Assembly (NCBI GenBank): GCA_044341565.1
Contig: JBIIRM010000002.1
Location: 1,812-65,811 of the forward strand
Source of the DNA: Minisyncoccia bacterium
Lineage (GTDB): Bacteria > Patescibacteriota > Minisyncoccia > SW-4-49-11
Length of the DNA stretch: 64,000 nucleotides
Direction of reading: 5' to 3'
Both the position numbers and the translations under genes were made by a program. How positions within the stretch are numbered: the stretch's first letter is position 1; the number at the start of each line of letters is the position of its first letter. This document shows positions 6,864 through 52,695 of the stretch, one piece after another. The notes below the pieces were generated by a model that saw nothing but the letters and a program-made list of their open reading frames with translations, was not told the DNA's origin and searched no databases.

Positions 6864-9017
6864 ATGAAAATAAAAATAAAAAGAGTAAAGAAAGGATTCA
6901 CCTTACTCGAGATACTACTCGTAATAGTCGCAATAGGAATATTAGCAGCAATAGTATTAGTAGCAATCAACCCAAATAGACAAATAAGCCAAGTAAGGAA
7001 TGCGCAAAGGAGGTCGGATGTCAATACATTATATAAAGCACTGGAACAATATCTAATAGATAATCAAGTATATCCAGCAGATATAGATGGAACAACATCA
7101 AAAGAAGTTTGTAATACAGGAACAAGAAGTATAACAGATGATCTCCCCGATGAAAATTATTGTGATGGAAAAGCCGACTTAAGAGTCTTAGTCCCAGATT
7201 ATATAGCAGCCATACCAGTAGATCCAAGTGGGAATAACTATACAGTAAGGAAAAATGAAAGTAATAGCAATAATATTAAAATTTGTGTTAATGCCCCTGG
7301 GGTAGAATTAGGAAAAATTATAAAAATAAACTGTGAAGGCGAGGATGTAGCCTCAGGAGTACTTTTGCCATCAGATATATCGCCTTTTATAGAAGGTTTT
7401 GATGATTCTCTTGGAGAGTCGTTGTACGACGAACCTGGCACTAACGATGGAAGCTATGGATATGTATTTAATACCACTGAAGAGAGTATTGTAAACGCTT
7501 TAGGTTTTTCAGCACAAGACAACTGGACAAACACCAATCTAACATATACAGTTCAACTTTTGTCTTTTTCTGTTAACCCAGAAGATCCTGACATAGAGAC
7601 CTCCCTTACCTACCTATCTCTAGCAGAACTCACATTCAATCCCAATGATCCCGACTTACTTTTAGTTGATGGTTACTACTGGAAGCCTCTTCCAACTCCT
7701 ATTAATCTTGCAGCGTCCTCAAGCGATCCATATACCGGTTATAGCATAGTCGCTATTGGTAACTTTACTGATAATTTAGATCTAACACTACGTGGTAATT
7801 TTAAGGAAATTGATGGGCAACCGATCTTCTCTTCTTTGGGACTATATGAATTTGGTGGCTATAATCAAGTAGGTGCTCCATTTTATCCTTTGCCAATTCA
7901 AAGTAATGATCAATATGGATATTGGAATACTAATATATCAATTAAGTCACTTCAGGATCCTACCCCTGAAGGCTTTAATGGCCGAGTCGAAACTTTGGCT
8001 ATTCAATCAGATGGTAAAATATTTGTGGGGGGATGGTTTACTAACTATGAAGGGGTTGATTCAGTAAATAAAATAACCCGTCTTAATAGTGATGGAAGTA
8101 GAGATGATACCTTTATAGGCTCAGGATTTGATTCAGAATATAACGATGATTTGGAAGTTACTAGAGTTGACACTATTGCCATCCAAGCTAATGGCAAGAT
8201 AGTAGTGGGAGGCTCATTTACCAGCTACCAAGGAATAGCATCTAATAGAATAATCCGTCTTAATAGTGATGGAAGTATAGATACAAGTTTTAATGTAGAG
8301 ATAGAGTTTGATGATTGGGTGAGCGCTATTGCTATCCAGTCAGATGGAAAAATATTAGTAGGAGCAGATTATAATAAAATAATCCGTCTGAATAGTAATG
8401 GAAGTATAGACAGTAGCTTTAATATAGGAACAGGTTTTAATAATGCTGTAACTAATATTACTTTACAAAGTGATGGAAAAGTATTGGTAGGAGGAGTTTT
8501 TACTGGATATAATGGAGAATTAGCTAATAGAATAACCAGACTTAATTCAAATGGAAGTATAGACACAAGCTTTAATATGGGTACAGGCTTTGATAGTTGG
8601 GTTAACACCATCGCCATACAGGATGATGGAAAGATAATAGTGGGTGGAAATTTTTCTAGTTATCAGGGAGTAACAGCTAATAAAATAATCCGTCTGAATA
8701 GTAATGGAAGTATAGACAGTAGCTTTAATATAGGAACAGGTTTTAATAATGCTGTAACTAATATTACTTTACAAAGTGATGGAAAAGTATTGGTAGGAGG
8801 AGTTTTTACTGGATATAATGGAGAATTAGCTAATAGAATAACCAGACTTAATTCAAATGGAAGTAGAGATCTTAGCTTTGATATGGGATCAGGATTTAAT
8901 AATACGGTACAAACAATAACCGTTGATAGTGATGGAAAGATAATAGTAGGAGGTGATTTTACTAGTTATAAAGATCAAATTGCTAATTATTTTATTATAA
9001 TATATGAAGAATTGTAG
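6864..9017 (+). CDS. Type IV pilin-like (prepilin leader) protein fused to a delta-60-repeat beta-propeller. Candidate pilus-associated adhesin.
   Basis: N-terminus MKIKIKRVKKG/FTLLEILLVIVAIGILAAI is a class III signal peptide with a prepilin cleavage/methylation motif. The C-terminal ~450 aa consist of repeats (I)IRLNSxGSxDxSFxxGTGF...QSDGKxxVGGxFTxYxG, which is the delta-60 repeat pattern. The N-domain is paralogous to the small pilin at 17964. Confidence 0.7.
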   Translation: MKIKIKRVKKGFTLLEILLVIVAIGILAAIVLVAINPNRQISQVRNAQRRSDVNTLYKALEQYLIDNQVYPADIDGTTSKEVCNTGTRSITDDLPDENYCDGKADLRVLVPDYIAAIPVDPSGNNYTVRKNESNSNNIKICVNAPGVELGKIIKINCEGEDVASGVLLPSDISPFIEGFDDSLGESLYDEPGTNDGSYGYVFNTTEESIVNALGFSAQDNWTNTNLTYTVQLLSFSVNPEDPDIETSLTYLSLAELTFNPNDPDLLLVDGYYWKPLPTPINLAASSSDPYTGYSIVAIGNFTDNLDLTLRGNFKEIDGQPIFSSLGLYEFGGYNQVGAPFYPLPIQSNDQYGYWNTNISIKSLQDPTPEGFNGRVETLAIQSDGKIFVGGWFTNYEGVDSVNKITRLNSDGSRDDTFIGSGFDSEYNDDLEVTRVDTIAIQANGKIVVGGSFTSYQGIASNRIIRLNSDGSIDTSFNVEIEFDDWVSAIAIQSDGKILVGADYNKIIRLNSNGSIDSSFNIGTGFNNAVTNITLQSDGKVLVGGVFTGYNGELANRITRLNSNGSIDTSFNMGTGFDSWVNTIAIQDDGKIIVGGNFSSYQGVTANKIIRLNSNGSIDSSFNIGTGFNNAVTNITLQSDGKVLVGGVFTGYNGELANRITRLNSNGSRDLSFDMGSGFNNTVQTITVDSDGKIIVGGDFTSYKDQIANYFIIIYEEL
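8375..8559. repeat. Intragenic perfect direct repeat, copy 1 (~185 bp)
   Basis: The sequence taataaaataatccgtctgaatagtaatggaagtatagacagtagc...cttaattcaaatggaagta recurs exactly at ~8683-8865. It encodes an identical delta-60 blade, IIRLNSNGSIDSSFNIGTGFNNAVTNITLQSDGKVLVGGVFTGYNGELANRITRLNSNGS. Confidence 0.85.
8683..8865. repeat. Intragenic perfect direct repeat, copy 2
   Basis: See copy 1. The boundaries are approximate to within a few bases. Confidence 0.85.
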
Positions 9018-22447: not shown

Positions 22448-22729
22448 ATGTTACGAATTCGATTGTCCCGAGTAGGGAAGAAAAATACTCCTATTTATAA
22501 AGTGGTTGTTGCAGAAAAAAGCCGTCCTGTAAAAGGAAAATTTATTGAATCTCTTGGGGTATATAATCCAGGGAATAAAGATCAAGCTCTTAATGCAGAA
22601 CGAATTAAGTATTGGATTTCAGTTGGAGCTCAGCCTTCACAAACAGTACATAATCTTTTGATACGACATAATATCATAGAAGCTACAAAAATCCCTGTAA
22701 CACGATTCAAAGCTAGTGAGTCAAAATAA
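22448..22729 (+). CDS. rpsP: 30S ribosomal protein S16
   Basis: MLRIRLSRVGKKNTPIYKVVVAEKSRP matches the bS16 N-terminus. Confidence 0.85.
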   Translation: MLRIRLSRVGKKNTPIYKVVVAEKSRPVKGKFIESLGVYNPGNKDQALNAERIKYWISVGAQPSQTVHNLLIRHNIIEATKIPVTRFKASESK

Positions 22730-22891: not shown

Positions 22892-24658
22892 ATGCAATCA
22901 AAACGACCGTACAATAATAATTTACAGAATAAGAATAACCGTTCTCGATCTCAAGGAAAAAGTTTTGCTCAAAAAAGAACTATTCCTGAAACCTCACGCC
23001 AAGCTCTCAAGATAATTCCTTTGGGAGGCCTTGATGGTGTTGGCAAGAATATGTATATATTTGAACAAGAGAATGATATTCTGATTGTCGATATGGGGCT
23101 TCAAATGCCCGGTGCTAATCAACCAGGAATTGATTATATTATCCCCAATACACAATATTTGATGGATAATAGCTCCAAAATAAAGGGAGTAGTATTAACT
23201 TCACCACATCCCGATCATATTGGGGCTGTTCCATATCTTTTACATTTATTCCCTAATTTGCATATTTATGCAACCGAGGCTTTATTTGCAATATTGGAGT
23301 CTAGGCAAGATTTTTATTCTCAAGGGGTAAAATACAAAAAACATATTATTAAACCCTATAATTCTATACGAGTAGGATCCTTTAAAGTGAATGTTTTCCC
23401 AACTCCATTTAATGTTATGGGTTCAATAGGATTATGTGTGTATACTATGCAAGGAAAGGTATTTTATCTCTCTAGCTATAAATTGGATAGTGAATCTACA
23501 GAAAAAAATGAATTTCTCGATTATATAAAGGAATTAGCTGGAGCTGATACATTTGCTCTTTTATCAGGTAGTTCAGCTACAGAATCACAGGGATTTGCAC
23601 CGACAGAAGCATCTATTGCAGAACATATTGATTCGGTTATAGCTCGCAAGACAGGTGCTGTATTTGTGTCTACATTCCCCTCTATGATTGGGCGCATGCA
23701 ACAAATTGTCAATGCAATAGAAGCTCATAACAAGCATTTATTCATTGAAGGAAAAAGTTTACTTAATACTTTTAATACATGTCGCAAAAAGGGGCTTATT
23801 CAAATAAAATCAGGTACTATAGTAGGGCCTAGTTTACTCGGGGATACTCCAAGAGAGCAATTAGTAGTATTAATATCTGGTTCTCATGGAGATGATATTC
23901 CTCATTTGATGAGACTGGCTAATAATGAGCATAGTGTATTCTCAATTAAAGAAGGGGATATTGTTATGTATCCTGGGGCTTTAATTCCTGGAAATGCCCG
24001 TTCAGCAGCTCGAGTAAATGATAATTTTGCTAAATTAGGAGCTTTTGTAGAATATTATCAGCCATTAGATACACGATTTGGGGCTTATGGAAGACATGAA
24101 GATAGTCTAGCTGTATTAAAAGCAATTCGTCCTAAATATTATGTACCTATTAGTGGATCACATCATTTGTTGAGGTCTAATGGAGATATTGCCATTGAAG
24201 GTGGGTATCCAGATCGCAATGTTGTAGTTGGTATGAATGGAAAAGTTATTCTATTTGATTATAAACAAAGACGTATTACTCCGGAAAAAGTTCCTACTTC
24301 CAATGTAATTGTAGATGGGCTTGGAGTTGGTGATTTAACCAATGTAGTTATACATGATAGGCAAACAATGTCAGAAGAGGGTATATTCCATATTGTAGCC
24401 CTACTGAATGCAGATACTCGAGAAATATCAGGAGATATTGTGGTAGTATCAAAAGGATTTGTAGATAATGAATCTTCAGATAAATTATTTAATGAAGTAA
24501 AAGAACAAACAAGATTAATTGTATTAGCTCTTTTGAAACAATCTGATGAAGTAAATATTGCCTATATACAAGATCAAGTAAGAGAGAATATTGGTCGCTT
24601 ATTACTTACGAAAACGGAAAGAAGACCAATGATTTTACCAATAATAATGAATATTTAA
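22892..24658 (+). CDS. rnj: Ribonuclease J (metallo-beta-lactamase / beta-CASP), paralog 1
   Basis: MBL motif TSPHPDHIG and the beta-CASP plus C-terminal domain architecture. 588 aa. Confidence 0.85.
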   Translation: MQSKRPYNNNLQNKNNRSRSQGKSFAQKRTIPETSRQALKIIPLGGLDGVGKNMYIFEQENDILIVDMGLQMPGANQPGIDYIIPNTQYLMDNSSKIKGVVLTSPHPDHIGAVPYLLHLFPNLHIYATEALFAILESRQDFYSQGVKYKKHIIKPYNSIRVGSFKVNVFPTPFNVMGSIGLCVYTMQGKVFYLSSYKLDSESTEKNEFLDYIKELAGADTFALLSGSSATESQGFAPTEASIAEHIDSVIARKTGAVFVSTFPSMIGRMQQIVNAIEAHNKHLFIEGKSLLNTFNTCRKKGLIQIKSGTIVGPSLLGDTPREQLVVLISGSHGDDIPHLMRLANNEHSVFSIKEGDIVMYPGALIPGNARSAARVNDNFAKLGAFVEYYQPLDTRFGAYGRHEDSLAVLKAIRPKYYVPISGSHHLLRSNGDIAIEGGYPDRNVVVGMNGKVILFDYKQRRITPEKVPTSNVIVDGLGVGDLTNVVIHDRQTMSEEGIFHIVALLNADTREISGDIVVVSKGFVDNESSDKLFNEVKEQTRLIVLALLKQSDEVNIAYIQDQVRENIGRLLLTKTERRPMILPIIMNI

Positions 24659-24659
24659 T

Positions 24660-26435
24660 ATGAAATCGTATCAACACTCTGAAATTAAGAGAGGAACAAC
24701 TTTTGTGACAGATTTAAGTCATAAAAGTAATGACTATCTTAATGCAAAAGAACCATTTAAGACTAAAGATAATCTTTTGAAAATTATTCCACTGGGTGGA
24801 TCAGAAGAAATTGGAGGTCGTAATATGACGGTAATAGAATATGGAAAAGATATTCTCGTCATTGATATTGGGATGAAATTCCCAGAAGAAGATCAACCAG
24901 GAGTTGATTATATTATCCCCAATCCCAGTTATCTTAAGGGGAAAGAGGATAATATTCGAGCTGTACTAATTACGCATGGACATATGGATCATATTGGAGG
25001 AGTATCTCAGGTTATGTCTATGATTGGTAATCCTCCTATATATGCACCTGCCCTACCTCTTGCTATGATGCAAAGACGACAAAGTGAATTCACTACCGTG
25101 CCTCCATTAAATGGAAAAGTAGCTAAATTAAATGAAAAGCTTAAATTTGGAGTATTTACTGTAACCTTTCTTCATATTAATCACAGTATTCCAGATTCAA
25201 CTATGATTAAGATTGAAACTCCAGAAGGAGTTATTCTGCATACGGGAGATTTCAAAATAGATGCTACTCCTATTGGAGAAGAGCCAGCTAATTTGGAAAT
25301 GTATCGCAAAATTGGTGATGAGGGAGTATTGGTATTATTATCTGATAGTACTAGTGCTTCTCGTCCCGGAAGAGTAACTTCTGAGATGACAATTCAAAAT
25401 AATATTGATCATATTTTTGAGAATGCTACCGGTAAAATTATTGTTACTACATTTTCTAGTACACTCAATCGTATACAACAAATGATTCATTTATCTGAAA
25501 AATATAATCGTAAAGTTGTAATTGAAGGATTTAGTATGAAAACGAATGTTCAAATTCTCCATGAAATTGGATATGCACATTTTTCTCCTCAAACTGTTAT
25601 TAGTGCACAAGAGGCTCGTAATATTCCTCCAGAAAACCTTACTATTATTTGTACAGGAGCTCAGGGAGATGAACGCTCAGCCCTAACCCGTATGGCTAAT
25701 CGTGAGCATCGGAATTTCCATATTGAAAAGGGAGATACCGTAGTATTCTCATCTTCTGTAGTTCCAGGTAATGAGGAGTCAGTACAAAAGGTGAAAGATG
25801 CTATTGCTCGCCAAAGAGCTCATATTATTCATTATAAAATGATGGAAGTTCATGTTTCCGGACATGCACAAAGAGATGATTTAAAACAATTATTAGATTT
25901 AATTCGTCCTAAATATTTACAGCCAATTTATGGAGATTTTTATTCTCTCAAATCTCATCGTGATTTAGCTCTAGAAGTTGGTATGAAAAAAGATAATATC
26001 TTACTTACTGATAATGGAAGAATTATAGAAATATATAAGGGTGAAGCCCGTGTAACTACTGAGAAAGTTAATGCTAGCACTATGATGGTGGATGGACTCG
26101 GAGTAGGGGATTTAAAAGAAATTGTAATCCGAGATAGACAATCTTTGGCTCAAGATGGTATTGTAACGGTAGTAGCTTTAGTTGATTTCAAAAAGGGAAA
26201 GCTTATTCGTGAACCAGAAATTATTTCTAAGGGATTTGTACATATACAAACATCTACCAAATTAATACAATCTATACAAGCTCGAGTACAAGAGCATATT
26301 GAGAAGAAATTGTCTCATGGAGAAGATCAAAGTATTGAATATATTCAACAATCAATTCGTGAAGATTTAGGTCTATTCTTATTCAGAACTACCCATAGAA
26401 GACCAATGATTATACCGGTTATTATTGAAATATAA
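24660..26435 (+). CDS. rnj: Ribonuclease J, paralog 2
   Basis: ITHGHMDHIGG MBL motif and HVSGHA motif. It is collinear with paralog 1, and the C-termini are similar (RRPMI(L/I)P(I/V)I). Confidence 0.85.
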   Translation: MKSYQHSEIKRGTTFVTDLSHKSNDYLNAKEPFKTKDNLLKIIPLGGSEEIGGRNMTVIEYGKDILVIDIGMKFPEEDQPGVDYIIPNPSYLKGKEDNIRAVLITHGHMDHIGGVSQVMSMIGNPPIYAPALPLAMMQRRQSEFTTVPPLNGKVAKLNEKLKFGVFTVTFLHINHSIPDSTMIKIETPEGVILHTGDFKIDATPIGEEPANLEMYRKIGDEGVLVLLSDSTSASRPGRVTSEMTIQNNIDHIFENATGKIIVTTFSSTLNRIQQMIHLSEKYNRKVVIEGFSMKTNVQILHEIGYAHFSPQTVISAQEARNIPPENLTIICTGAQGDERSALTRMANREHRNFHIEKGDTVVFSSSVVPGNEESVQKVKDAIARQRAHIIHYKMMEVHVSGHAQRDDLKQLLDLIRPKYLQPIYGDFYSLKSHRDLALEVGMKKDNILLTDNGRIIEIYKGEARVTTEKVNASTMMVDGLGVGDLKEIVIRDRQSLAQDGIVTVVALVDFKKGKLIREPEIISKGFVHIQTSTKLIQSIQARVQEHIEKKLSHGEDQSIEYIQQSIREDLGLFLFRTTHRRPMIIPVIIEI

Positions 26436-27183: not shown

Positions 27184-29088
27184 ATGGCATTAAAAGATAT
27201 AGAAAAACAAATTTATCAAAAAGAAGATCGTGAAGTCTTAGATCAGGAGCGTACGCAGCATACACCATATAGTGTATATGCTAAACATGATGAGGCTCAG
27301 GCTCCATCACTGACTTCTTTTGAGACTGCAGATCAAACATTTGTTCAAAAACATAAGAAGAAAATTACTTTATGGAGCTTGATTGCTTTAACAGTATTTG
27401 TGGTAATAGGAATAGCTGGTTTTATATATGCCCTTAATCAGCAAAGATTTTCTGATAAAAGAGTAGTATTAGAGGTAAAGGGAGAATCTCAAGTAAGTGC
27501 CGGTGAAGAGCTTAGCTATACACTTACATATCGTAATGATAACCTTGTAGCTTTAGAGAATGCTGAGATTACGGTGGAATTACCAAAGGCCCTAACAGAT
27601 TCTTCCCTGAATATTCTTGGACAAGAAAAATCAGAAATACGTGAATATTCCTTAGGAGAATTAGCTCCACGTTCCAAAGGAGAAATCACCATAAAAGGAC
27701 GATTAATAGGGGAACAGGGAAATATACAGACTATTAAAGCAACATTAAATTATAAACCAAGTATTTTAAGCTCAAGTTTTGATACTAAAACTGAATTTGC
27801 AACTACCATAGCAGATAGCCCTGTCATTATTGATATACAATCTCCTCTCGAAAGTGTAAGTGGGGATACAGTTAATTATGTAGTAACGGTTAATAATAAG
27901 GGATCAAGTGATTTAAAGGATTTAGAATTGCGTTTAGAATATCCTGATACTTTTGCTTTTGTTTCGTCTAATATACCAGCTACGGGAAATGAGCAAAATA
28001 CCTTTACTATATCCAACTTAAAAGCAAAAGGAGCTTTTAGCGTAACTGTTAGCGGTAATCTTGGAGGTACTGATCAAGAAATTAAAATTCTAAAAGCCCA
28101 AATTGGAGAAAATAAACAAGGAGCATTTACTTTGTATGCAAGTAGTCAGAATTCAACTAAATTAGGCTCTCCTTATGTGAGTGTGGTACAAAAAGTAAGC
28201 CCTGCCTCAGGAATAGTGTCGGCAGGTGAAACTCTAGAGTATACTGTCAGTATTCGAAATAATACGCAAGTGAGAATAGGGGAGGGATTATTAAAAGTCA
28301 AACTGGATAGTAATTTATTGGACATAACTAAATTAAGAGCTTTAGGAGCTGATTTTGATGCGGGTAGTAATACCATTATTTGGCGAGCCAATGCATTACC
28401 TCAACTTAAGACATTTGCCCCAAATGAAGAGGGGACGGTTACTTTTTCTGTACCAGTAAAGCGTATTATTCCTATTGATGATTTTCAAGATATTAATTAT
28501 GTTATTAAAACACAGGCTACATTTGAAAGTGATGAAGTTCCTACAACTCTTGGAGTTAATAAAATTATTCAAGGGAATGCTAGTGAAGTAAAATTAGCTA
28601 CACGTCTTATTTCAAAATCAAATATATATTATAAAAATTCAGCAAGTTCTATTATTAATAATGGCCCTATTCCATTGAAATTAGCTCAAACTACAACATT
28701 TACGGTGAATTGGGAAATACAAAATTTGAGTAATGATGTCTCTGGTGTAGTATTAAAGGCTACATTACCAGCTAATGTTACTTGGACGGGACAGAGTACA
28801 AATAATGGTATTGGAAAATTAAGTTATAATGATAAAACCAAAGAAATTGTTTGGGATATTGGTAATGTACCCGCTAATACAGGATTATTAAGGCCTCTTT
28901 ATAGAGCGGTATTCCAGATTGCAATTAATCCTACTCCAAATCAATTAGGACAAGAGCCAAGTTTATTGAGTAAAGTAAATTATACGGGAAAAGATGTATT
29001 TACAGGAATTGATTTGTCTGGTAACATAGATATTCCAACTAGTAATCAAGTTACTGATGTAAAAGGTCAGCTTACTGTAGAGAATTAA
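27184..29088 (+). CDS. Membrane-anchored surface protein with repeated Ig-like (DUF11-like) domains
   Basis: A transmembrane helix lies at ~aa 62-84 (LIALTVFVVIGIAGFIYAL). Repeated ~100-aa modules carry G(E/D)xLxYTxxxxN patterns. Confidence 0.4.
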   Translation: MALKDIEKQIYQKEDREVLDQERTQHTPYSVYAKHDEAQAPSLTSFETADQTFVQKHKKKITLWSLIALTVFVVIGIAGFIYALNQQRFSDKRVVLEVKGESQVSAGEELSYTLTYRNDNLVALENAEITVELPKALTDSSLNILGQEKSEIREYSLGELAPRSKGEITIKGRLIGEQGNIQTIKATLNYKPSILSSSFDTKTEFATTIADSPVIIDIQSPLESVSGDTVNYVVTVNNKGSSDLKDLELRLEYPDTFAFVSSNIPATGNEQNTFTISNLKAKGAFSVTVSGNLGGTDQEIKILKAQIGENKQGAFTLYASSQNSTKLGSPYVSVVQKVSPASGIVSAGETLEYTVSIRNNTQVRIGEGLLKVKLDSNLLDITKLRALGADFDAGSNTIIWRANALPQLKTFAPNEEGTVTFSVPVKRIIPIDDFQDINYVIKTQATFESDEVPTTLGVNKIIQGNASEVKLATRLISKSNIYYKNSASSIINNGPIPLKLAQTTTFTVNWEIQNLSNDVSGVVLKATLPANVTWTGQSTNNGIGKLSYNDKTKEIVWDIGNVPANTGLLRPLYRAVFQIAINPTPNQLGQEPSLLSKVNYTGKDVFTGIDLSGNIDIPTSNQVTDVKGQLTVEN

Positions 29089-40680: not shown

Positions 40681-40902
40681 TTATTTATTTGAGAGCTTAT
40701 CTTTCTTCTCTAATTTAGCTCGGAATTTCTCAACTCTTCCAGCGGTATCTACCAAAGTTCTTTTTCCTGTATAAAAAGGATGACATTTTGAACATACTTC
40801 AATAGAAATTTTTTCTCTTGTAGCTCCAATTTCAAATTCAGTACTACAAGAAATACATTTAACAGTAGTATGATAATAGGTTGGGTGAATGCCAGATTTC
40901 AT
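40681..40902 (-). CDS. rpmE: 50S ribosomal protein L31
   Basis: MKSGIHPTYYHTTVKCISCSTEFEIGAT with a CxxC pair. Confidence 0.85.
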   Translation of the reverse strand: MKSGIHPTYYHTTVKCISCSTEFEIGATREKISIEVCSKCHPFYTGKRTLVDTAGRVEKFRAKLEKKDKLSNK

Positions 40903-41049: not shown

Positions 41050-41802
41050 ATGGAGTCCAATCTCACTTTGGGTGATATTATATCCAAAATACAAAGAAAA
41101 TTTAATACGGTTATTATTATAACACTTATTTTTGTATTAGTCGGAGTGGGTATTACTCTTATTATACCAAAACAATATAGGGGAGAATCTCAATTTGTTG
41201 TTATTCAAAAGGCAAATCCAGAAATTGACTCCTATACGGCACAAAGATCAATTGATTCTAAAGTAGATTTATTAGTGAATTTGGTATATACTGATACATT
41301 TTTTGCAAGTGTTACAGCGGATAATGTTGATATCAAGAATGCATTTCCTGAAAATCTGAAGGATAGAAGAACCGCATTTGCTCGTAATATTATTGTTGAA
41401 GCTAAGGGAACTGGTTTTGTCTCAGTATCAACCTATGATGTCTCCTCTGAACTTGCCCTTACTATGAATAAAGTCGTAGTGGATAAATTAATTGAACAGG
41501 CAAAGGTATTATTTGGAGAAACAGGTACTATTCAAGTTGTAAATCAATCATCTCTGTATGATGGAGTTGGGCGGCCAGATATTTTGGTTAATCTCTTGGG
41601 ATCAGCTCTATTAGGATTTTCTATTGCGATTGGATATGTTATTGCAAGGCGAGATCAAAGTATATCATATGATTTTGGTGTTGATAATTTTGTGTCCCCA
41701 CAACTTCCTGATGAATATGAAATAGCTGAAAACCCTATTATTGATTTAACTCCACCCCCATCTATAAGTCCAGATACAGAGTATGACTCAGATAAGTTCT
41801 AA
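41050..41802 (+). CDS. Wzz-like polysaccharide chain-length determinant / co-polymerase
   Basis: The likely start is MESNLTL; the track ORF begins at 40972. An N-terminal transmembrane helix, a periplasmic-type domain and a C-terminal transmembrane helix (LLGFSIAIGYVIARR) give the Wzz topology. Confidence 0.45.
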   Translation: MESNLTLGDIISKIQRKFNTVIIITLIFVLVGVGITLIIPKQYRGESQFVVIQKANPEIDSYTAQRSIDSKVDLLVNLVYTDTFFASVTADNVDIKNAFPENLKDRRTAFARNIIVEAKGTGFVSVSTYDVSSELALTMNKVVVDKLIEQAKVLFGETGTIQVVNQSSLYDGVGRPDILVNLLGSALLGFSIAIGYVIARRDQSISYDFGVDNFVSPQLPDEYEIAENPIIDLTPPPSISPDTEYDSDKF

Positions 41803-43177
41803 TATAATTATTGGACTTGGGGCTATAAGTTTACTTATATGTATTTTACTTAATGCTCCTGGTATCATATTTGCGGCAGTTATTCTTAGTTGGGTATTTG
41901 TATTCATATTATCTATTTCTTTAGAAGTAGGTTTATTTACTTTGATTTTTTTACGGCCAGCTATAGATATTATTAGCCCTTTTACATTACCTGATTTTCC
42001 TATTATTAATTTGGGATCTACTATTGCTATAATGATAATAGTATTGTCATTCATATATATATATAAACACCGAATAGTAGTATATAATTCACATATCCCT
42101 TTAATGTGGAGTTTAGGACTGATTGTACTTGTATATATTATTTTTAGTTTTACAGGGATTTCATTGTTTGTCGGATTACAGGAAACAGTGAGAGTATTGA
42201 GTTTTATTATGCTCTATTTTGTGGGGTGGATATATGTTTCACATCAAAATAAATTAATGAATATAATGAGAGTTATTATATATGGGAGTATTATTCCACT
42301 ATTCGTTGCATATATTGAATATTTTTCTGGCACAGGATTATATACTAATCCTGGGTTTGAAAATCGTATTGCAGGTACATTTGGACATCCTAATGTACTT
42401 GCGTATTATTCTATTATTATCCTTGCATTAATTGGGAGTATATGGCTGAATAAGAATACTACTATTTCAATAGATGAAAAGAGATTATTAGGAAGTATTG
42501 GCTTATTATATATTATTATTCTTTTGGTTACTTTTACACGAGGTGCCTGGTTTGGGCTTATCATGTTAATTGCCTTAATAGGATTAATTAAATATCCACG
42601 TAAAAGTTTAATTATTACATCAATAGGATTAGGATTTATTGCTTTAGTATTATCTATATATCAGATTTTATCTCCCCCTACTGTTTTAGATTTACCGCCA
42701 CTAACTACTTTACCTGTGATTAATAGAGTATCAGGCTTATTTAATGCCGACCCCAGTGATTCGGTGATATGGAGATTAACTATGTGGACAGATATGTATG
42801 AAAAAGCCTGGGAGTCCCCTATAATAGGTTTTGGTACAGGAAGTTCTCAAATTATGGTTGAGCAAACACGAGGTACATTTAGAGGTTCTCTTGAAGTACA
42901 TAATGATTATATCAAAATATTCCTAGAACAAGGATTGATTGGCCTTATGATATATGGAATATTAATACTTAATATTCTAGGAGTATTATATTATCGCTAT
43001 ATACAGGGTAAAAATATCTATATTTTATATTTAGCATCCTTGATGACGGTGATTTATATAGTGAGTTTTTGGGATAATTTACTTCGTGGAACAGTATTAA
43101 TGTGGATATTATTCCTTTTATTGGGGGCAGTATTACATTATCAGAGTTTAGATAATAAATCAGATACGAGTATATGA
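41783..43177 (+). CDS. O-antigen ligase/polymerase family (Wzy_C) membrane protein
   Basis: ~11 transmembrane segments with a large loop containing TRGAWFGLIMLIAL. Confidence 0.6.
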   Translation: MTQISSNIIIGLGAISLLICILLNAPGIIFAAVILSWVFVFILSISLEVGLFTLIFLRPAIDIISPFTLPDFPIINLGSTIAIMIIVLSFIYIYKHRIVVYNSHIPLMWSLGLIVLVYIIFSFTGISLFVGLQETVRVLSFIMLYFVGWIYVSHQNKLMNIMRVIIYGSIIPLFVAYIEYFSGTGLYTNPGFENRIAGTFGHPNVLAYYSIIILALIGSIWLNKNTTISIDEKRLLGSIGLLYIIILLVTFTRGAWFGLIMLIALIGLIKYPRKSLIITSIGLGFIALVLSIYQILSPPTVLDLPPLTTLPVINRVSGLFNADPSDSVIWRLTMWTDMYEKAWESPIIGFGTGSSQIMVEQTRGTFRGSLEVHNDYIKIFLEQGLIGLMIYGILILNILGVLYYRYIQGKNIYILYLASLMTVIYIVSFWDNLLRGTVLMWILFLLLGAVLHYQSLDNKSDTSI

Positions 43178-44238
43178 AAATTTTAGTATTAGGTCGACAA
43201 CATATAGCTAAATCAGAGGATATTATTAAAGGTCTTCAGGATTTGGGACATACTGTACATTATCTCCTTTTCCCTTCCCTCCAATATCCTCAAAATTATT
43301 ATACTACTCATACAGGAAATATATCGACTCTATCATATACATCCAAGATAGCATATTATTGGGGACATTATCATAGTATACGGAAATATATGACATCTCA
43401 TCTTGATACGGATTATGATTATATTTTAGCTATAGATTGGTTTGAGGGATATATTGCTCTTTCACTCCGAGATTATTTTAAGGATATCCCTATAATATAT
43501 TATGCCTATGATTATTATTTTTATTCTAATAGACTTTCATCACGCTATATTATTAACAAAATAGAGGCCTCAGTATATAAGCGGGCAAATATGGTCTGGG
43601 CTTTGAGTTCACAAATTATTATAGAACATGAAAAAAAACATATTAATAAATCTTTGGTATTGACTATACCATTAGGGATTCATACTCAAAAAATTGCTCC
43701 CTATAAACCCGATTCAAGACAAATACTCTTTATGGGTAATTTTAAAGAAGGGCATAATTTACGATTATTGGTAAATGTTTTTGCAAAATTATCTCCAGAC
43801 TATCATCTACATCTTATAGGTAAGGGTAATTTATATCAAGAAATTGAGAAAATAATTCAACCTGCAAGCTCTAATATTACTTTATATGGATTTCAAGATG
43901 AACAGCAAATACAAGAATTAGTAGTGAAGCATCATATTGGTTTTGGAATAGCTTTATATGAGAATACATTAGAAATATCTTGTGCTGATCCAGGGAAAAT
44001 TAAAGATTATCTTTCATTGGGGCTCCCAATTATTACTACTCCATATCCTAGTATAAGTAAGGATATACAAGAATATAATTTAGGATTAGTAATACAAGAT
44101 AATGAAGAAAGTTTATATACAACATTAATTCATATAGATGAAAATAATATGAATAAGTTTGCAAAAAATATTATAAGATACACTCAACAACATAGTTATG
44201 CTAAAATATTAGCTAAAGCTTTATCTCAGAGTAAATGA
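43174..44238 (+). CDS. Family-1 (GT4-like) glycosyltransferase
   Basis: C-terminal GT-B Rossmann half and an E..GH..-like motif region. Part of the polysaccharide cluster. Confidence 0.55.
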   Translation: MKILVLGRQHIAKSEDIIKGLQDLGHTVHYLLFPSLQYPQNYYTTHTGNISTLSYTSKIAYYWGHYHSIRKYMTSHLDTDYDYILAIDWFEGYIALSLRDYFKDIPIIYYAYDYYFYSNRLSSRYIINKIEASVYKRANMVWALSSQIIIEHEKKHINKSLVLTIPLGIHTQKIAPYKPDSRQILFMGNFKEGHNLRLLVNVFAKLSPDYHLHLIGKGNLYQEIEKIIQPASSNITLYGFQDEQQIQELVVKHHIGFGIALYENTLEISCADPGKIKDYLSLGLPIITTPYPSISKDIQEYNLGLVIQDNEESLYTTLIHIDENNMNKFAKNIIRYTQQHSYAKILAKALSQSK

Positions 44239-44300
44239 TATCTATTGATAAAATGTCATATATATGATAGGGTAGAGATGTCCATCTTTGGTTATTTACC

Positions 44301-44696
44301 ATGAAAAAGCTCTTTCTCCCTTTTGTAACAGCAATTTCAGTTCTATTCCCAATGGCAGCAACAGCTCAATGGTGGGGTGAATCTTTTGAAAGTATTGAAT
44401 ATAATGGGGTGATAATTCGCTCCGATATTCGTCCACGCACTATTATTTGTCCTATTGTGGAATCACAAGGATTACCTTGTGATGGATATCAAGGATTCAA
44501 TGCATCCACCAGGACTCATATTTTTAGAAATAATGGGAATTGGAATAATAATAGAAACTGGAATAATCAGTGGCAAAACCCAGGATGGAATAATAATCAA
44601 CATTGGAGACAGCCTAATTCAGGATGGAATAATAATGGAGGTTGCCTCTTCAAAAAATGGACGCGAGATGGTGGCTTTGCAATCGGGAATTGCTGA
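44301..44696 (+). CDS. Small secreted Asn/Trp-rich repeat protein
   Basis: Signal peptide MKKLFLPFVTAISVLFPMAATAQ. NWNNNRNWNNQWQNPGWNNN repeats. Several Cys. Host-like AT-rich composition. Confidence 0.5.
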   Translation: MKKLFLPFVTAISVLFPMAATAQWWGESFESIEYNGVIIRSDIRPRTIICPIVESQGLPCDGYQGFNASTRTHIFRNNGNWNNNRNWNNQWQNPGWNNNQHWRQPNSGWNNNGGCLFKKWTRDGGFAIGNC

Positions 44697-44716
44697 TACA
44701 TTATTTTCCAATCTCA

Positions 44717-44753
44717 AGCCGGTAGCAATAGCTGCCGGTATTTTTTTGTTTTT
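44717..44753 (+). terminator. Intrinsic terminator
   Basis: agccggtagcaatagctgccggt hairpin followed by tttttttgttttt. Confidence 0.55.
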
Positions 44754-44758
44754 ATATC

Positions 44759-44787
44759 TTGACAAATAAGATATAATATGCTATAGT
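44759..44787 (+). promoter_or_regulatory. Sigma-70-type promoter TTGACA-N17-TATAGT with a TGc extended -10 region
   Basis: ttgacaaataagatataatatgctatagt. Confidence 0.5.
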
Positions 44788-44812
44788 CACTAAGTCGTTT
44801 CGTGGATAAACC

Positions 44813-45124
44813 ATGAAAACTCTTACCAAGTTCATCGCCGGCGCTCTGCTGGCAGGCACCACACTTCTGACCGTGGCTCCCGCCACGGCTCAGTCCCTCA
44901 GCGGCAGGGTCGCCGTCGGACCCATCGGGTCCACCACGAGGGCCTGGACCTCGGTCTCCGAAGCTCAGTCCCTGTGTGCCCGCAATGGGTGCTGGGTGAC
45001 CGATGGGGTGGAGGTGTCACCCGGTAATTGGGTACCGAACACTCTGTTCCCGGGGGCGAAATCCCTCAGGGATTCAGCTGGGAACGGCCTGCTCGAGATT
45101 CCTCGAGCGACATCTCCTCGCTGA
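44813..45124 (+). CDS. GC-rich island gene 1: small secreted protein (103 aa)
   Basis: Signal peptide MKTLTKFIAGALLAGTTLLTVAPATAQ. Mature region carries CARNGCW. Coding GC is roughly 60% by eye with high GC3, against a low-GC genome. The start codon is preceded by gtGGATAAACCatg. Confidence 0.6.
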   Translation: MKTLTKFIAGALLAGTTLLTVAPATAQSLSGRVAVGPIGSTTRAWTSVSEAQSLCARNGCWVTDGVEVSPGNWVPNTLFPGAKSLRDSAGNGLLEIPRATSPR

Positions 45125-45150
45125 GGTGTCAGTTCAGTTTAGTTCAATAA

Positions 45151-45176
45151 GCCTCTGCAATGCAGGGGCCTTTTTT
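45151..45176 (+). terminator. GC-rich intrinsic terminator
   Basis: gcctctgcaatgcaggggcc hairpin followed by tttttt. Confidence 0.6.
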
Positions 45177-45199
45177 ATATATTGAAATGTTGTCAATAC

Positions 45200-45228
45200 T
45201 TGACTTTTTGGTTTAAATATGCTATTAT
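45200..45228 (+). promoter_or_regulatory. Sigma-70-type promoter TTGACT-N17-TATTAT with a TGc extended -10 region
   Basis: ttgactttttggtttaaatatgctattat. Confidence 0.5.
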
Positions 45229-45255
45229 AGATCCGTCTTTCATGGGTTTATCCTA

Positions 45256-46254
45256 ATGAAAAAGTTCATTCCCATCTTGCTTGGCTCTGTTTTACTGGCT
45301 TCGGCTGGAAAGGCGGAGACATTGCCTTTGAGGCTCCAGATCAGCACCCCAGATTCCAATCGGGCGGTGAGGGTGATCATAAGTCCCAGTCAAGCGAAAG
45401 CCTCGGCAGGGCTGGTAACAGCTCGTCCTGGTTCCAATCCCTCGGACTGGGCACCTCAGTACAATAGACTGATTAACCAAAAGGCCCTCGGGTCTCGCGG
45501 TCAATCGGGTGCTGGGCTCACAGCAGGTACGCCTCGGCGTTTCTGTCTGGTGCCTTTGTACCAGGAGGTGAAAAATCTCTCTGCGCTCCCTTGTGGAGCT
45601 TATGGGGAGAGTATCAACTTCCGGTCCAATGGACCCCTTGCCTTCAGCCTTATCAGTGTCAAATCTGATGGTGGATGGCAATGGCTCGACAATGGGCCTA
45701 AGGGGGCTGGTACTGGTGGTCTTACTCTTGTAAGTTCACCAGGCTGGGAAGTTGCTGGGTGGGGACATACCTCAAAAGGGTATGTCCCCACCAGCAGGGG
45801 AGTATTCTTTGGCCCCATCTTCACGGGTGGGGACTTGGCTACCTCGAGGATTTTATCCTCGACTCCCGCCTCGGCGGTGAGGGAGCCTATCTGGCGTCTG
45901 CCAGATTCTGGGCTCAGGTTCCCGGCAGTGATCACGGTCAGCAATGATCGTATCACTCTCTCCACCACCCCCATTCCCGGGGCGCAATATTTCTTCCTCC
46001 CTCGGGAGGGCGGTATGTCGGTAGGACGCGAATTCATCGCAATTCAGCCAGGAGTAGCATTCCAAGCTGGAGTTCAGCTGAACTCCTCCGCTACCGATGC
46101 TGGCACCTTTGGTGCCAAGCTTCCCGATGGCAAGATTGCCTGGATTCAATGGGGATCTCGTCCTGATGGACGTGACACCCGGGTCAAGGTGATTAATCAA
46201 GGTGGTCAGCCCTGGGTTCAGCAAGGTTGGAGCTTGGTCCGCGTTCATCGCTGA
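45256..46254 (+). CDS. GC-rich island gene 2: secreted protein (332 aa), no recognised domain
   Basis: Signal peptide MKKFIPILLGSVLLASAGKAE. Gly/Trp/Ser-rich. Roughly 55% GC by eye. Upstream is the inverted motif catgGGTTTATCC. The antisense ORFs in the track across this gene are GC-composition artefacts. Confidence 0.65.
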   Translation: MKKFIPILLGSVLLASAGKAETLPLRLQISTPDSNRAVRVIISPSQAKASAGLVTARPGSNPSDWAPQYNRLINQKALGSRGQSGAGLTAGTPRRFCLVPLYQEVKNLSALPCGAYGESINFRSNGPLAFSLISVKSDGGWQWLDNGPKGAGTGGLTLVSSPGWEVAGWGHTSKGYVPTSRGVFFGPIFTGGDLATSRILSSTPASAVREPIWRLPDSGLRFPAVITVSNDRITLSTTPIPGAQYFFLPREGGMSVGREFIAIQPGVAFQAGVQLNSSATDAGTFGAKLPDGKIAWIQWGSRPDGRDTRVKVINQGGQPWVQQGWSLVRVHR

Positions 46255-46261
46255 TCAGACT

Positions 46262-46288
46262 CCTCATATCAGCCCTCACAATTTGTGG
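46262..46288 (+). terminator. GC-rich intrinsic terminator
   Basis: gccctcacaatttgtgggggc hairpin followed by tttttt. Confidence 0.6.
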
Positions 46289-46327
46289 GGGCTTTTTTAT
46301 TTCTCTCCAAAAACACTATAATAGATG

Positions 46328-46356
46328 TTGTTAGCTATTGACAAAATCGTGTTTTT
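46328..46356 (+). promoter_or_regulatory. Sigma-70-type promoter TTGACA-N17-TAGTAT with a TGc extended -10 region
   Basis: ttgacaaaatcgtgtttttatgctagtat. Confidence 0.5.
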
Positions 46357-46394
46357 ATGCTAGTATGCGAGAGTTCTTTACCAGGAGTTTTACG

Positions 46395-47528
46395 ATGAAA
46401 AATCGTAACATCTTGGGGATGTTTGCAATCGTTCTTCCACTACTTGCCCCTATGGGTGTCAAGGCGGAGAATTTGCTCTCATCACCTCAATCGAATATCC
46501 AGGCAGAAATGCCTCGGAGACTCTCAACTCGAGAGCAAGCAGCTGAGCTTCGCGCCATGCGTGAAGCTGCCGAGGCTCGTAATGCTGGAAGTGTTCCGCA
46601 AATGTCACAGACTCCACCTGGACCACCACCGGTTTTGCCGGTAACTCAGGTTGTGACACAACAACCTGTCAATCCTGTGGTTGCAGGACCTGTTGTTACC
46701 CCTTTTCAAAAGGGCGGTGGAGAATCCTCCCTGTTCGGTGGTAATAACACCAATATCAGGGGGGAGGCAGAGTACAGTAGCACTCCCAGCCAGATCAATT
46801 CCAAGGCTGGAGTCACGCTGGCTCCCAAGGGGAAACCTTTCCTGATGCAAGTTACCGGCTATCAAAGCTCGGGAACTTGCCCAGCAGGTCCGGGAGGTAC
46901 TTGTTCCTATGATTCCAGTAAGCTGGATATCTATGGGGCTCTGAGAGGCTGGTCTTCCACTACCGAGTGGAATGCTGGTCCCTTTGTCCGTTTCCAGCAG
47001 AATAATGCTAATGGGACTTGGAAAAGCCCCGATGGTCTTTATTCCGGTGAATGGAAGTCGGATAAGCCTCAGACTGATGTCGGTATCCGAGCCCGGATTC
47101 GTCATCGCCTGGACCCCAAGTCTTCCGCCAATCCTTGGATTGGTGCAGGTGGCGAATACGATTTCGCCAATGGAGGCTATGACGCCTTCGGCGAAGGCGG
47201 TATTCGCCCCGGCAACTCCAAGAATCCCTGGAATCTGTATGTCCAGGGGGGTGTGAATACTGACGGAGGATATTTTTATCCCGAGGTCACCACACCTAAT
47301 CTGGTGGGGGATGCCAATTCGAAGCTGCAGGTCCAGCTTCAGGCAAAGGGAGTTCTTTATGGCCTCGGCCGTGATAACTCCACTAGTCGAGTTGAACTCG
47401 GGGCCCCCATCACCCTGAATCTCAGCCGCAATACGGCTATTCAGGTGGTGCCAGCCTATGTGCTGGGACTCGACTCCAATACCCGCTCAGGGTTTGGGGG
47501 CACAGTAAAGCTCCGCTTCGGCTTCTGA
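46395..47528 (+). CDS. GC-rich island gene 3: secreted protein with an outer-membrane-beta-barrel-like C-terminus (porin-like)
   Basis: The likely start is MKNRNILGMFAIVLPLLAPMGVKAE (signal peptide); the track ORF starts at 46338. It has a short Ala/Glu/Arg helical segment and a Pro-rich linker. The Gly/aromatic-rich body ends ...GGTVKLRFGF, a terminal Phe with alternating hydrophobics typical of OMP beta-signals. Roughly 58% GC by eye. Confidence 0.6.
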   Translation: MKNRNILGMFAIVLPLLAPMGVKAENLLSSPQSNIQAEMPRRLSTREQAAELRAMREAAEARNAGSVPQMSQTPPGPPPVLPVTQVVTQQPVNPVVAGPVVTPFQKGGGESSLFGGNNTNIRGEAEYSSTPSQINSKAGVTLAPKGKPFLMQVTGYQSSGTCPAGPGGTCSYDSSKLDIYGALRGWSSTTEWNAGPFVRFQQNNANGTWKSPDGLYSGEWKSDKPQTDVGIRARIRHRLDPKSSANPWIGAGGEYDFANGGYDAFGEGGIRPGNSKNPWNLYVQGGVNTDGGYFYPEVTTPNLVGDANSKLQVQLQAKGVLYGLGRDNSTSRVELGAPITLNLSRNTAIQVVPAYVLGLDSNTRSGFGGTVKLRFGF

Positions 47529-47687
47529 AGTAAAACCAAAAATGATAGCAACTAACCCCTCACGGGGAGCAGTCGCCTTGACCATCTCTGGTTTTATACC
47601 CCTATATCTCCAGCTGCTTGCAGTTGGGGATTTTCATTTTGTAAGAATATAGGCTATAATAGATTTTATATCTGCTCTTTTAGATTC

Positions 47688-47879
47688 ATGAGACGCAACC
47701 CAGTCTTACTGATTATATCTATTTTGGTAGCTGTAATCATTCAGCATAGTATTGCCGAAGAAGATATTATGTCAGAGAATATTCCTCATCAGTCTCAGGT
47801 ACTGCTTAGTATTTTGTCTCTCCTCTCAGGTTTGATTGGAGCTGATATATTTATGACAGGTATTCGACTCATTTGGTAA
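47688..47879 (+). CDS. Possible small two-helix membrane protein (63 aa)
   Basis: MRRNPVLLIISILVAVIIQHSIAEED...LLSILSLLSGLIGADIF. It is preceded by a ggctataat -10-like box and followed by a weak hairpin plus T-rich run. Confidence 0.3.
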   Translation: MRRNPVLLIISILVAVIIQHSIAEEDIMSENIPHQSQVLLSILSLLSGLIGADIFMTGIRLIW

Positions 47880-47946
47880 TGCTTCAACTTTAGGTTCACT
47901 CTCAATTCGAGGGTGGGCTTTTCTTTATTTCAGTTGTTGAAAACTT

Positions 47947-47975
47947 TTGACATTTGAGTCAAAATATGCTATAAT
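47947..47975 (+). promoter_or_regulatory. Sigma-70-type promoter TTGACA-N17-TATAAT with a TGc extended -10 region
   Basis: ttgacatttgagtcaaaatatgctataat, upstream of the glycosyltransferase at 48007. Confidence 0.5.
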
Positions 47976-52618: not shown

Positions 52619-52695
52619 TGGTGTACCTAAGAGGGTTCGAACCTCTGACCTCAGGTTCCGCAAACCTGCGCTCTATCCAACTGAGCTATAGGTAC
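52619..52695 (-). tRNA. tRNA-Arg (anticodon GCG by hand folding). CCA is encoded.
   Basis: Reverse complement GTACCTA-TA-GCTC-AGTTGGATA-GAGC-G-CAGGT-TTGCGGA-ACCTG-AGGTC-AGAGG-TTCGAAC-CCTCT-TAGGTAC-A-CCA. All stems are canonical. The anticodon assignment depends on my loop register. Confidence 0.75.

Follow-up and report, generated by a model that had tools for sequence, protein, structure and literature searches.

What keeps three adjacent genes GC-rich in a genome that is otherwise poor in guanine plus cytosine (GC), and does their composition betray a foreign origin or serve a purpose of the cell itself? The genes in question, here called g1, g2 and g3, encode secreted proteins and form an island at positions 44813-47528 of a 64-kb stretch of DNA (the window) from a low-GC (~33%), ultra-small lake bacterium of the candidate phyla radiation (CPR)/Paceibacteria. 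The available data point, in our judgement with a little more than an even chance of being right, to a native array of monocistronic genes that is present across the clade, encodes envelope proteins exported through Sec, lies in a hypervariable Wzy/GT4 locus and is selected for folded messenger RNAs (mRNAs). These envelope-protein cassettes are probably highly expressed.

Along the window GC per kb is 0.26-0.39 with the exception of 45-48 kb, where it reaches 0.46-0.53 at this 1-kb resolution, and a 100-nt profile places 0.55-0.71 GC inside the three plus-strand open reading frames (ORFs) and 0.33-0.38 in the intervening spacers. The initial annotation of this DNA had described, by eye, a high-GC island sharply bounded by low-GC flanks, with composition switching at the boundaries of the coding sequences (CDSs) and AT-rich spacers, and the sliding GC profile together with per-gene GC at third codon positions (GC3) bears this out, neither measure being uniform. 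GC and GC3 are 0.635 and 0.702 for g1, 0.558 and 0.547 for g2, and 0.535 and 0.505 for g3, as against 0.330±0.021 and 0.200±0.026 for 56 background genes of the window (highest GC3 0.25); in the same per-gene table the spacers stand at 0.33-0.39 GC. Approximately half of the GC excess comes from the amino acids (G, A, P, R and W up; I, K, E and D down) and the other half from synonymous codon choice: the island's amino acids combined with background codon choice would give an expected GC3 of 0.219 and GC of 0.433, whereas 0.548 and 0.559 are observed, and CTG (0.34 vs 0.04), ATC (0.59 vs 0.07) and TTC (0.74 vs 0.17) illustrate the shift. Purifying selection acts on all three ORFs in their stated frames, and they are coding; the ratio of nonsynonymous to synonymous divergence (dN/dS) against orthologs in two related loci, L002 and L003, is 0.22-0.25 for g1, 0.15-0.19 for g2 and 0.18-0.27 for g3, with third-position changes dominant. 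Elsewhere in the window three large putative surface proteins are encoded with normal low GC, at 308-3286 on the minus strand (GLUG motif and LamG-like domain), 6864-9017 (DUF5122 beta-propeller repeats) and 27184-29088 (DUF11/DUF7927 repeats), indicating that secreted or surface status alone does not bring about the GC anomaly.

The island is part of a longer replaceable block, laid out as follows together with the two ribosomal-protein genes that share its promoter type.
41828..47910, plus strand: replaceable block between conserved flanks, holding Wzy_C, GT4a, g0, g1, g2, g3 and g4
41783-43177, plus strand: Wzy_C protein, left part of the variable block
43174-44238, plus strand: GT4a, in the variable block
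44301..44696, plus strand: g0, a low-GC gene of the array (GC3 0.29) whose small secreted product is N/W/Q-rich and has 4 Cys
44712..44830, plus strand: junction 1, with the g0 terminator (44718-44739), the g1 promoter (44759-44787), the 5' untranslated region (UTR) and the first signal-peptide codons
44813..45124, plus strand: g1, secreted, 103 amino acids (aa), without known family
45151..45228, plus strand: junction 2, with the g1 terminator (45151-45169) and the g2 promoter (45200-45228)
45256..46254, plus strand: g2, secreted, 332 aa, mostly beta, without known family
46273..46475, plus strand: junction 3, with the g2 terminator (46271-46293), the g3 promoter (46338-46366), the 5' UTR with AGGAG and the part of g3 coding for the signal peptide
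46395..47528, plus strand: g3, 377 aa, a predicted barrel protein of outer-membrane type
47529..47631, plus strand: 3' region of g3, in which a conserved non-coding element (47529-47600) precedes a terminator hairpin (47606-47631)
47688..47879, plus strand: g4, putative ORF (63 aa, hydrophobic), preceded by a promoter-like site (47631-47660) and followed by a terminator (47892-47920)
47947..47975, plus strand: promoter of GT4b, the conserved downstream gene; consensus 12/12 plus TG, at the right edge of the variable block
22448-22729: rpsP, same promoter type as the island genes
40681-40902, minus strand: rpmE, same promoter type as the island genes

The products of g1, g2 and g3 begin with signal peptides, assigned by eye, that consist of a K/R n-region, a hydrophobic core and an AxA-type site (ATA/QS, GKA/ET and VKA/EN, respectively). 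Upstream of each gene lies the promoter TTGAC[AT]-N17 (ending ATGC)-TAnnnT, which is found exactly at 44759 (g1), 45200 (g2), 46338 (g3), 47947 (GT4b), 22382 (rpsP) and, on the minus strand, 40938 (rpmE); with at most one mismatch there are 9 matches against 1.9±1.3 expected. A hairpin with a T-run follows g1 (45151-45169), g2 (46271-46293) and g3 (47606-47631), and the promoter and terminator of each island gene are kept in all loci. The initial annotation was thus right to give each of the three ORFs a signal peptide, a native-type promoter such as that of rpsP and a glycosyltransferase, and a hairpin plus T-run terminator of its own. Because the g3 -10 box overlaps the ATG at 46365 that gene callers had used, the true start of g3 is 46395; g1 is missing from the gene calls of the source contig, and in L003 a minus-strand ORF was annotated where g1 should stand.

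The property that links the GC-rich genes is the predicted folding of their transcripts. The mean minimum free energy (MFE) of 120-nt windows was compared with that of within-gene permutations of synonymous codons, a control that keeps protein, codon usage and GC3, and native minus permuted MFE per 120 nt was -6.7 kcal/mol for g1, -10.4 for g2 and -10.0 for g3, while 57 background genes gave -0.77±1.27 with an extreme of -3.7 (rpsP -1.2, rpmE -0.6). An RNA-fold z of -3.1 was obtained for g1, and the structure excess of g2 has z of -6.5 to -7.3. The excess recurs in all GC-rich genes tested, whatever their cassette type and lineage (z of -4 to -10 for long genes, -1.6 to -3.9 for short ones); g0 lacks it, and those flanking genes that were tested show it weakly or not at all (GT4b z +0.5 to -3.6). 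Dinucleotide-preserving shuffles of island segments gave z of -6.3 and -5.1 (in both cases 0/200 shuffles folding as well), and of -3.9 and -3.1, as against +0.6 for a GT4b segment. In 7/7 genes the excess is larger on the sense than on the antisense strand and the sense strand uses more G·U pairs, which points to the transcript rather than the DNA. Consensus folding of ortholog alignments, controlled by column shuffles that preserve codon position and conservation, yielded a mean z of -3.1 for g2, -2.2 for g3A (the g3 of type-A loci, described below) and +0.06 for GT4b.

High GC by itself is not accompanied by such folding in the Escherichia coli genes ompA, fadL and ompF (GC 0.49-0.54), where the excess is only -1.2 to -2.5 kcal/mol and the MFE per 120 nt is -30 to -34 kcal/mol, compared with -43 to -50 for the island genes. 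On the other hand, a more divergent relative, L022, which shares the g3-GT4b-DUF4012 synteny in a background of ~0.43 GC, has a g3 homolog with a GC3 of only 0.36 (neighbour 0.39) and yet a fold z of -6.4 (neighbour -1.0). The retention of the fold excess without the GC3 anomaly indicates that the conserved trait is the folded transcript, and GC enrichment looks like a way to reach such folding in a 33%-GC genome. It might also be suggested that rare GC-ending codons slow elongation and so couple the synthesis of beta-rich proteins to Sec export, folding being a by-product. This translational tuning would suit the strong shift in codon choice (CTG, ATC, TTC) and the fact that all products are secreted, but native codon order folds 7-11 kcal/mol per 120 nt better than permutations of the same codon usage, g0, pilins and the large surface proteins are secreted and nevertheless use normal codons, and GC3 is normal in the L022 g3, so that we consider it very unlikely.

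A structured non-coding RNA was ruled out as an identity for the island: the genes are coding (dN/dS 0.15-0.27), compensation is not above shuffles and there is no Rfam match at threshold, a scan of the island at a permissive threshold returning sub-threshold matches over the g2 terminator only. Within the g2 CDS, at 45758-45792, there is a perfect 14-bp hairpin (GGTGGGGACATACC / GGTATGTCCCCACC, 7-nt loop), which is only partly conserved in orthologs. The small ORF g4 has a GC3 of 0.33 and a fold excess of -5.3 kcal/mol per 120 nt; its L010 counterpart is 33% identical, and none is present in L002 or L003.

The island occupies the same site in at least 11 independently assembled long CPR contigs from different samples, assemblers and lineages, and exact or related g3 products occur in JGI, ENA and Logan contigs as well as in five metagenome-assembled genomes (MAGs) that are GTDB species representatives, labelled Paceibacteria, Parcubacteria or Paceibacterota and, in one case, Saccharibacteria. 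The order L25 - x452 - PrmC - RF1 - L31 - Wzz - Wzy - [island] - GT4b - DUF4012 - RecG - TrmD - PilM is constant, the flank proteins are 75-93% identical across independent assemblies, and each long context shows a block of ~3 kb at 0.50-0.66 GC within a background of 0.30-0.36. A search for the same cassette in related genomes, as the initial annotation had proposed, therefore finds it repeatedly and in place. That GC-rich foreign DNA was joined to a CPR contig by chimeric assembly or binning contamination has a practically negligible probability: many family members do lie on short contigs and assemblies often break at the island, but the same junctions recur in these long contigs of varied sample, assembler and lineage, native promoters and terminators lie within the island, and its boundaries diverge along with the host genome. 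The breaks are seen in L013, L014, L015 and L018 and in many protein matches on contigs of 1-6 kb, where assemblies end at or inside the island and leave short GC-rich contigs; they fit strain heterogeneity, or coverage and GC effects, at this locus, and as a consequence binning will often lose island genes. One locus, L006 (CAZYEN010000022.1), is titled 'Candidatus Saccharibacteria'; its flank proteins share ~55-80% identity with their counterparts in the window (~80% for RecG, RF1 and x452), much as in loci titled Paceibacteria or Parcubacteria, and the Saccharibacteria label is probably loose.

Comparison with L010 delimits the exchanged region. The flanks are 87-88% identical at the DNA level up to 41827 and from 47911 on, with RecG and RF1 93% identical as proteins, and similarity collapses between the start of Wzy (41828) and a point just before the GT4b promoter (47910). 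Within the L010 block Wzy is 43% and the g3 counterpart 29% identical at the protein level, and GT4a and g2 are absent. Only three patches of the block align, at 44712-44830 (85%), 46273-46475 (78%) and 47515-47698 (83%), of which the first two are terminator-promoter-signal-peptide junctions and the third is the end of g3 with its downstream element; the first, junction 1, keeps its 85% identity despite unrelated flanking CDSs. Against L002, by comparison, the island is 83.4% identical and the flanks 72.7%.

Two main cassette types can be distinguished, type A with g0-g1-g2-g3A and type B with a 270-aa protein, g0, a 90-130-aa protein related to the N-terminal half of the 270-aa protein, and g3B, while L009 and L006 hold further variants; all cassette-type proteins are secreted and none is of known family. 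Modules of g3 reassort as well, since the family member P0005 shares 77% identity with P0030 over the N-terminal module and 25% over the barrel, whereas with P0008 the values are 35% and 74%, respectively. Downstream of g3 the element at 47529-47600, with a CCCCTCACGGGG hairpin, is ~83% conserved with L010 and also present in L009, despite the different barrel type there, and a different conserved element (..CCCTTGGAGG..GGGAGTTAGTCTGAAAAACTGAATA..) stands 3' of g3 in L002, L003, L006, L007 and L008; the existence of two alternative elements means that 3' modules assort independently of barrel type. These comparisons show that whole cassettes and protein modules are exchanged between lineages while the AT-rich terminator-promoter-signal-peptide junctions persist. 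The block and its surrounds carry genes of the cell envelope and surface (Wzz, Wzy_C, two GT4 genes, DUF4012 and the secreted proteins), and the locus behaves as a replacement flexible genomic island, with the same site, conserved flanks, divergent content and surface genes.

Further observations concern the neighbours of the GC-rich genes. Wzy_C falls into two classes that track cassette type, with 59-64% identity to the window in type-A loci and 41-44% in type-B loci, and the place of GT4a holds other sequence in type-B loci (L007 2268-3578, L008 6815-8125, L009 6470-7818 and L010 6600-7984), with a weak GT4-like match on the minus strand in the L007 space. The g0 protein has conserved Cys residues and abounds in N, Q, W and Y; its relatives mostly terminate in ..GGCVYQ[DN]K.[IV]R[IV]LCN, and its gene carries WNNN-type 22-nt repeats (44541-44646). 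This low-GC gene, whose GC3 is 0.31-0.36 in type-B loci despite high-GC genes on either side, is fast-evolving (dN/dS ~0.3), shifts its position in the array between cassette types and has relatives at L007 4510-4962, L008 9065-9472 and L010 8909-9337, as well as a GC-rich paralog in L009 (s118, 38% identical).

A high-GC surface locus with mosaic alleles in an AT-rich genome recalls the antigenic variation of Lyme Borrelia, where silent cassettes are the source of segmental gene conversion and a high GC content would assist it. Such a vls-like system is highly improbable here, given that the coding-strand GC skew is 0.014 vs ~0.52 in vls, that there are 0 G-quadruplex (G4) motifs, that searches of the remainder of the 64-kb window with the island (blastn and tblastn) revealed neither silent nor partial copies, that internal cassette repeats are absent, and that each gene has its own promoter.

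With regard to origin, it had been suggested in the initial annotation that the island is horizontally acquired, perhaps host-derived cargo, domesticated one gene at a time. Under this explanation genes from a GC-rich Gram-negative donor came under native promoters and retain the composition of the donor, for which foreign-like composition and amino-acid usage, the fold of g3 and its C-terminal aromatic signal, typical of Gram-negative outer-membrane proteins (OMPs), and the lower synonymous divergence (dS) of the island, more similar between species than its flanks as lateral spread would have it, may all be cited. The searches for donor homologs, on the other hand, found none outside the CPR clade. 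No match to g1, g2 or g3 exists in Pfam, NCBIfam, PHROGs or PDB sequences (g2 and g3 profiles against PDB sequences were likewise empty), nor is any of g0-g4 or the type-B cassette proteins assigned a family by Pfam, NCBIfam or PHROGs. A word-indexed search of 5.8 billion sequences recovered close relatives only (~40 clusters for g3, 21 for g2 and 10 for g1, the 21 g2 relatives being 74-100% identical), and an exhaustive HMMER profile search with the g3 alignment over 1.84 billion cluster representatives returned four clusters, all clear family members. A scan of viral contigs for g3 gave nothing, and no family member was found in a GC-rich genome; all long genomic contexts show this one locus on a low-GC CPR contig. 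Neither an integrase nor an att repeat or tRNA target occurs in or beside the island, its only direct-repeat family being the promoters, and insertion of a mobile element was rejected for this reason.

The substitution pattern bears on the same question. Synonymous third-position changes were polarised by parsimony with L003 as outgroup, and the per-site rates of strong-to-weak (S->W) and weak-to-strong (W->S) change were 0.153 and 0.170, respectively, for the island, as against 0.365 and 0.131 for the flanks. From these rates follows an equilibrium GC3 of 0.26 for the flanks and of 0.53 for the island, the latter matching what is observed; the island counts (S->W:W->S) are 58:39 where flank bias would lead one to expect ~4.5:1. 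GC3 is at least 0.45 in all lineages, including orthologs whose flanks are synonymously saturated and cassette types whose g3 is ~30% identical. At this approximate level the composition of the island has settled at equilibrium, with no sign of amelioration, and does not look like the fading trace of a transfer. Its dS (0.34-1.2) is two- to four-fold below that of the flanks, which could reflect synonymous constraint, more recent lateral exchange, or both. Moreover, the signature is common to several unrelated families across cassette types, for which many transfers from unseen donors would be needed, and the folding excess is missing in E. coli OMP genes of equal GC. A foreign origin thus appears rather improbable, and the alternative also raised in the initial annotation, a cassette array whose foreign-looking composition is deliberately maintained, fits the data well and is sharpened by them.

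A maintained composition could in principle also arise by GC-biased gene conversion, in which recombination at the locus would raise GC without selection on RNA or protein output. The locus is indeed a recombination hotspot with mosaic alleles, the lowered S->W and raised W->S rates are as this process predicts, and GC3 is mildly raised (0.29-0.36) in g0 and g4. However, Wzy (GC3 0.20) and GT4a (GC3 0.16) are AT-rich although they lie within the same replaced block, g0 stays AT-rich even between GC-rich genes and the spacers do so too, from which it follows that the anomaly is gene-specific, and this counts against a purely regional cause. Biased conversion further predicts no excess self-complementarity, sense-strand asymmetry or conserved consensus folding, the L022 fold excess occurs without a GC3 anomaly, and, to our knowledge, a GC3 shift from 0.2 to 0.55-0.70 far exceeds what has been reported for this process in bacteria; we regard it as quite unlikely.

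What, then, might such genes encode? The g3 protein is composed of a signal peptide (1-24), a helix (45-63), a disordered Pro-rich linker (66-117) and a predicted barrel (118-377; nt 46746-47525). An AlphaFold model built from a 36-sequence alignment gives a confident up-and-down beta domain of 14 strands at 118-377, with predicted local distance difference test (pLDDT) values mostly of 85-92, and in this model the domain is a closed, antiparallel, all-beta meander as in OMP barrels. The dyad pattern, hydrophobic towards the lipid and polar towards the lumen, is clear in 8/14 strands (e.g. ISAVL vs QNKGT, VLAIL vs REGPTN and FGVLF vs GGTKRG). The protein ends in GGTVKLRFGF, type A members in ...VKLRFGF and type B members in ...RFGFRF, an aromatic-ending beta-signal, and in the C-terminal region of the family G366 and G368 are invariant and R374 and G376 nearly so. 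At fold level g3 is accordingly predicted to be a 14-strand beta-barrel of outer-membrane type. Membership in a known OMP family is not indicated, Pfam, NCBIfam and PDB sequences giving no match and the exhaustive profile search returning its own family only; the OMP-like character noted in the initial annotation therefore holds for the modelled fold and the aromatic beta-signal and does not extend to the sequence level, and homology to a cytoplasmic family, which would have spoken against it, did not appear in Pfam, NCBIfam, PHROGs or PDB sequences. As had also been remarked, no Bam, Lpt, Omp or secretin family is represented among the ~35 window proteins scanned. The window is otherwise typical of CPR, with two RNase J genes, TGT, PFOR, an M23 peptidase and type IV pilus genes PilM/B/T/C/D plus a pilin. 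The AF2 model of g2 is poor (pLDDT 44.6).

A role of the island products in host interaction or as effectors is plausible, and since freshwater Paceibacteria occur both as free-living and as host-attached cells (PMC9166423), a role in host contact is possible. One conceivable version is that the g3 barrel is exported into the outer membrane of a Gram-negative host, its F-x-F terminus being accepted by the host BAM machinery and its helix and Pro-rich tether leading back to the epibiont, so that it would act as a grappling device and nutrient pore with g1 and g2 as accessories; the A and B types would then track host range or phage pressure, and folded mRNAs would be stored messages for fast synthesis upon host contact. 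We consider this unlikely. In a weaker variant, the Paceibacteria clade would possess an unrecognised outer lipid layer of its own.

The explanation we favour, that of a native array selected for folded mRNAs, can be formulated as follows. Selection would act on folded, and hence long-lived, mRNA, which in combination with promoters of ribosomal-protein type and strong terminators would ensure high output in a ribosome-poor cell with RNase J-type decay, the island products being major envelope proteins. The g3 protein would be a tethered, porin-like barrel (anchor helix, Pro-rich spacer of ~50 residues, barrel) residing in a lipid layer external to the cytoplasmic membrane, with g1 and g2 as its secreted partners, and the co-varying Wzy_C and GT4a may modify the island proteins or their layer. 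The AT-rich junctions would serve as homology anchors for cassette replacement, and diversification may be driven by phage or host pressure. RNase J belongs to the Gram-positive type of mRNA decay machinery, and two adjacent RNase J paralogs lie directly downstream of rpsP (22892-24658 and 24660-26435), which bears on a reading in terms of mRNA stability. In other systems it has been established that structure within a CDS can raise the functional half-life of an mRNA (bioRxiv 10.1101/549022).

Several points weigh against this explanation. The folding values throughout are predicted from thermodynamics; in the best window covariation does not exceed that of shuffles, 3/52 pairs being compensatory, and predicted paired synonymous sites evolve no slower than unpaired ones. 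Either global foldedness rather than particular helices is selected, or a non-selective process generates the self-complementarity, and the claim made here is consequently one of overall foldedness with turnover of helices, not of specific conserved helices. Initiation regions are not clearly open, so that the pattern of an open start with a folded body is not clearly seen, and ribosomal-protein genes with the same promoter have no fold excess, which indicates that high expression alone does not require folding. The polarised substitution counts are approximate, as they rest on parsimony with a saturated outgroup and the flanks are saturated too. Finally, the g3 barrel is a prediction from 36 sequences, and CPR cells have so far been described as monoderm (PMC8871954), which leaves no obvious membrane for a barrel.

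CPR/Patescibacteria are regarded as single-membraned, and for their contact with hosts or environment a conserved yet hypervariable locus with strong promoters, encoding a predicted tethered barrel of outer-membrane type, provides a concrete molecular candidate. A sharp anomaly in GC and codon usage need not mean foreign origin, which calls for caution in composition-based detection of horizontal gene transfer, and the island may represent a case in nature where coding sequences have been shaped to stabilise their transcripts. Conserved junctions around interchangeable coding bodies also suggest a simple route, by homologous recombination, to surface diversification in tiny genomes. A separate feature of the window is a tRNA-Arg at 52619-52695 with the anticodon GCG; bacteria normally decode CGU, CGC and CGA by an ACG (inosine) tRNA, and a different decoding arrangement may therefore exist in this lineage.

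Hypervariable surface loci are already known, and what is new here is the combination of a predicted OMP-type barrel and GC-rich, hyper-folded genes in CPR, undescribed as far as could be found: no report of OMP-type barrels, GC islands or GC-rich hyper-folded coding genes in CPR emerged from the literature. The closest known systems are the replacement islands for surface glycotypes of aquatic bacteria (O-antigen, capsule and S-layer glycosylation), with which the locus shares a fixed site, conserved housekeeping flanks, divergent versions and Wzz/Wzy_C/GT4 genes. Surface replacement islands usually have a GC content equal to or below that of the genome. The block described here differs in adding secreted-protein genes with a high-GC, folded-mRNA signature and in the fine grain of its modular exchange, the units of which can be single genes or protein modules while the promoter-terminator junctions stay conserved.

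At the level of the protein, g3 shares a Sec signal peptide, alternating strands and an F-x-F C-terminus with the 14-strand barrels of Gram-negative bacteria (OmpG, FadL/TodX, CymA and PorV/BamG), and differs from them in lacking OMP-family homology, in its CPR host and in the additional N-terminal helix and Pro-rich tether before the predicted barrel. In OmpM/SlpA of diderm Terrabacteria an SLH domain and a coiled-coil stalk precede a beta-barrel (PMC10628300, PMC9388160). The architecture of g3, a tether plus a barrel, is similar, but it has no SLH domain (no Pfam match), 14 predicted strands as against 16-30, and a single 19-residue helix (45-63) followed by a disordered Pro-rich segment where these proteins have a long coiled coil; in addition, no outer membrane is known for the lineage that hosts g3.

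Among GC-rich surface loci, the vls cassettes of Borrelia have 49% G+C vs 28.6% for the chromosome, with selection inferred, and they resemble the island as a surface-protein locus ~20 points above an AT-rich genome in G+C, apparently by selection and across divergent species (PMC11499132). The island differs in having no GC skew, G-runs/G4, silent cassette array or single expression site, the linked property being mRNA foldedness. The vlp, vsp and vsa families of Mycoplasma are monocistronic arrays of surface genes in which promoter, 5' UTR and signal peptide are conserved and the mature parts vary, the same array layout as that of the island. In contrast to these, the island products do not look like lipoproteins, phase-variation repeats and invertases are not apparent, and the variation is seen between genomes.

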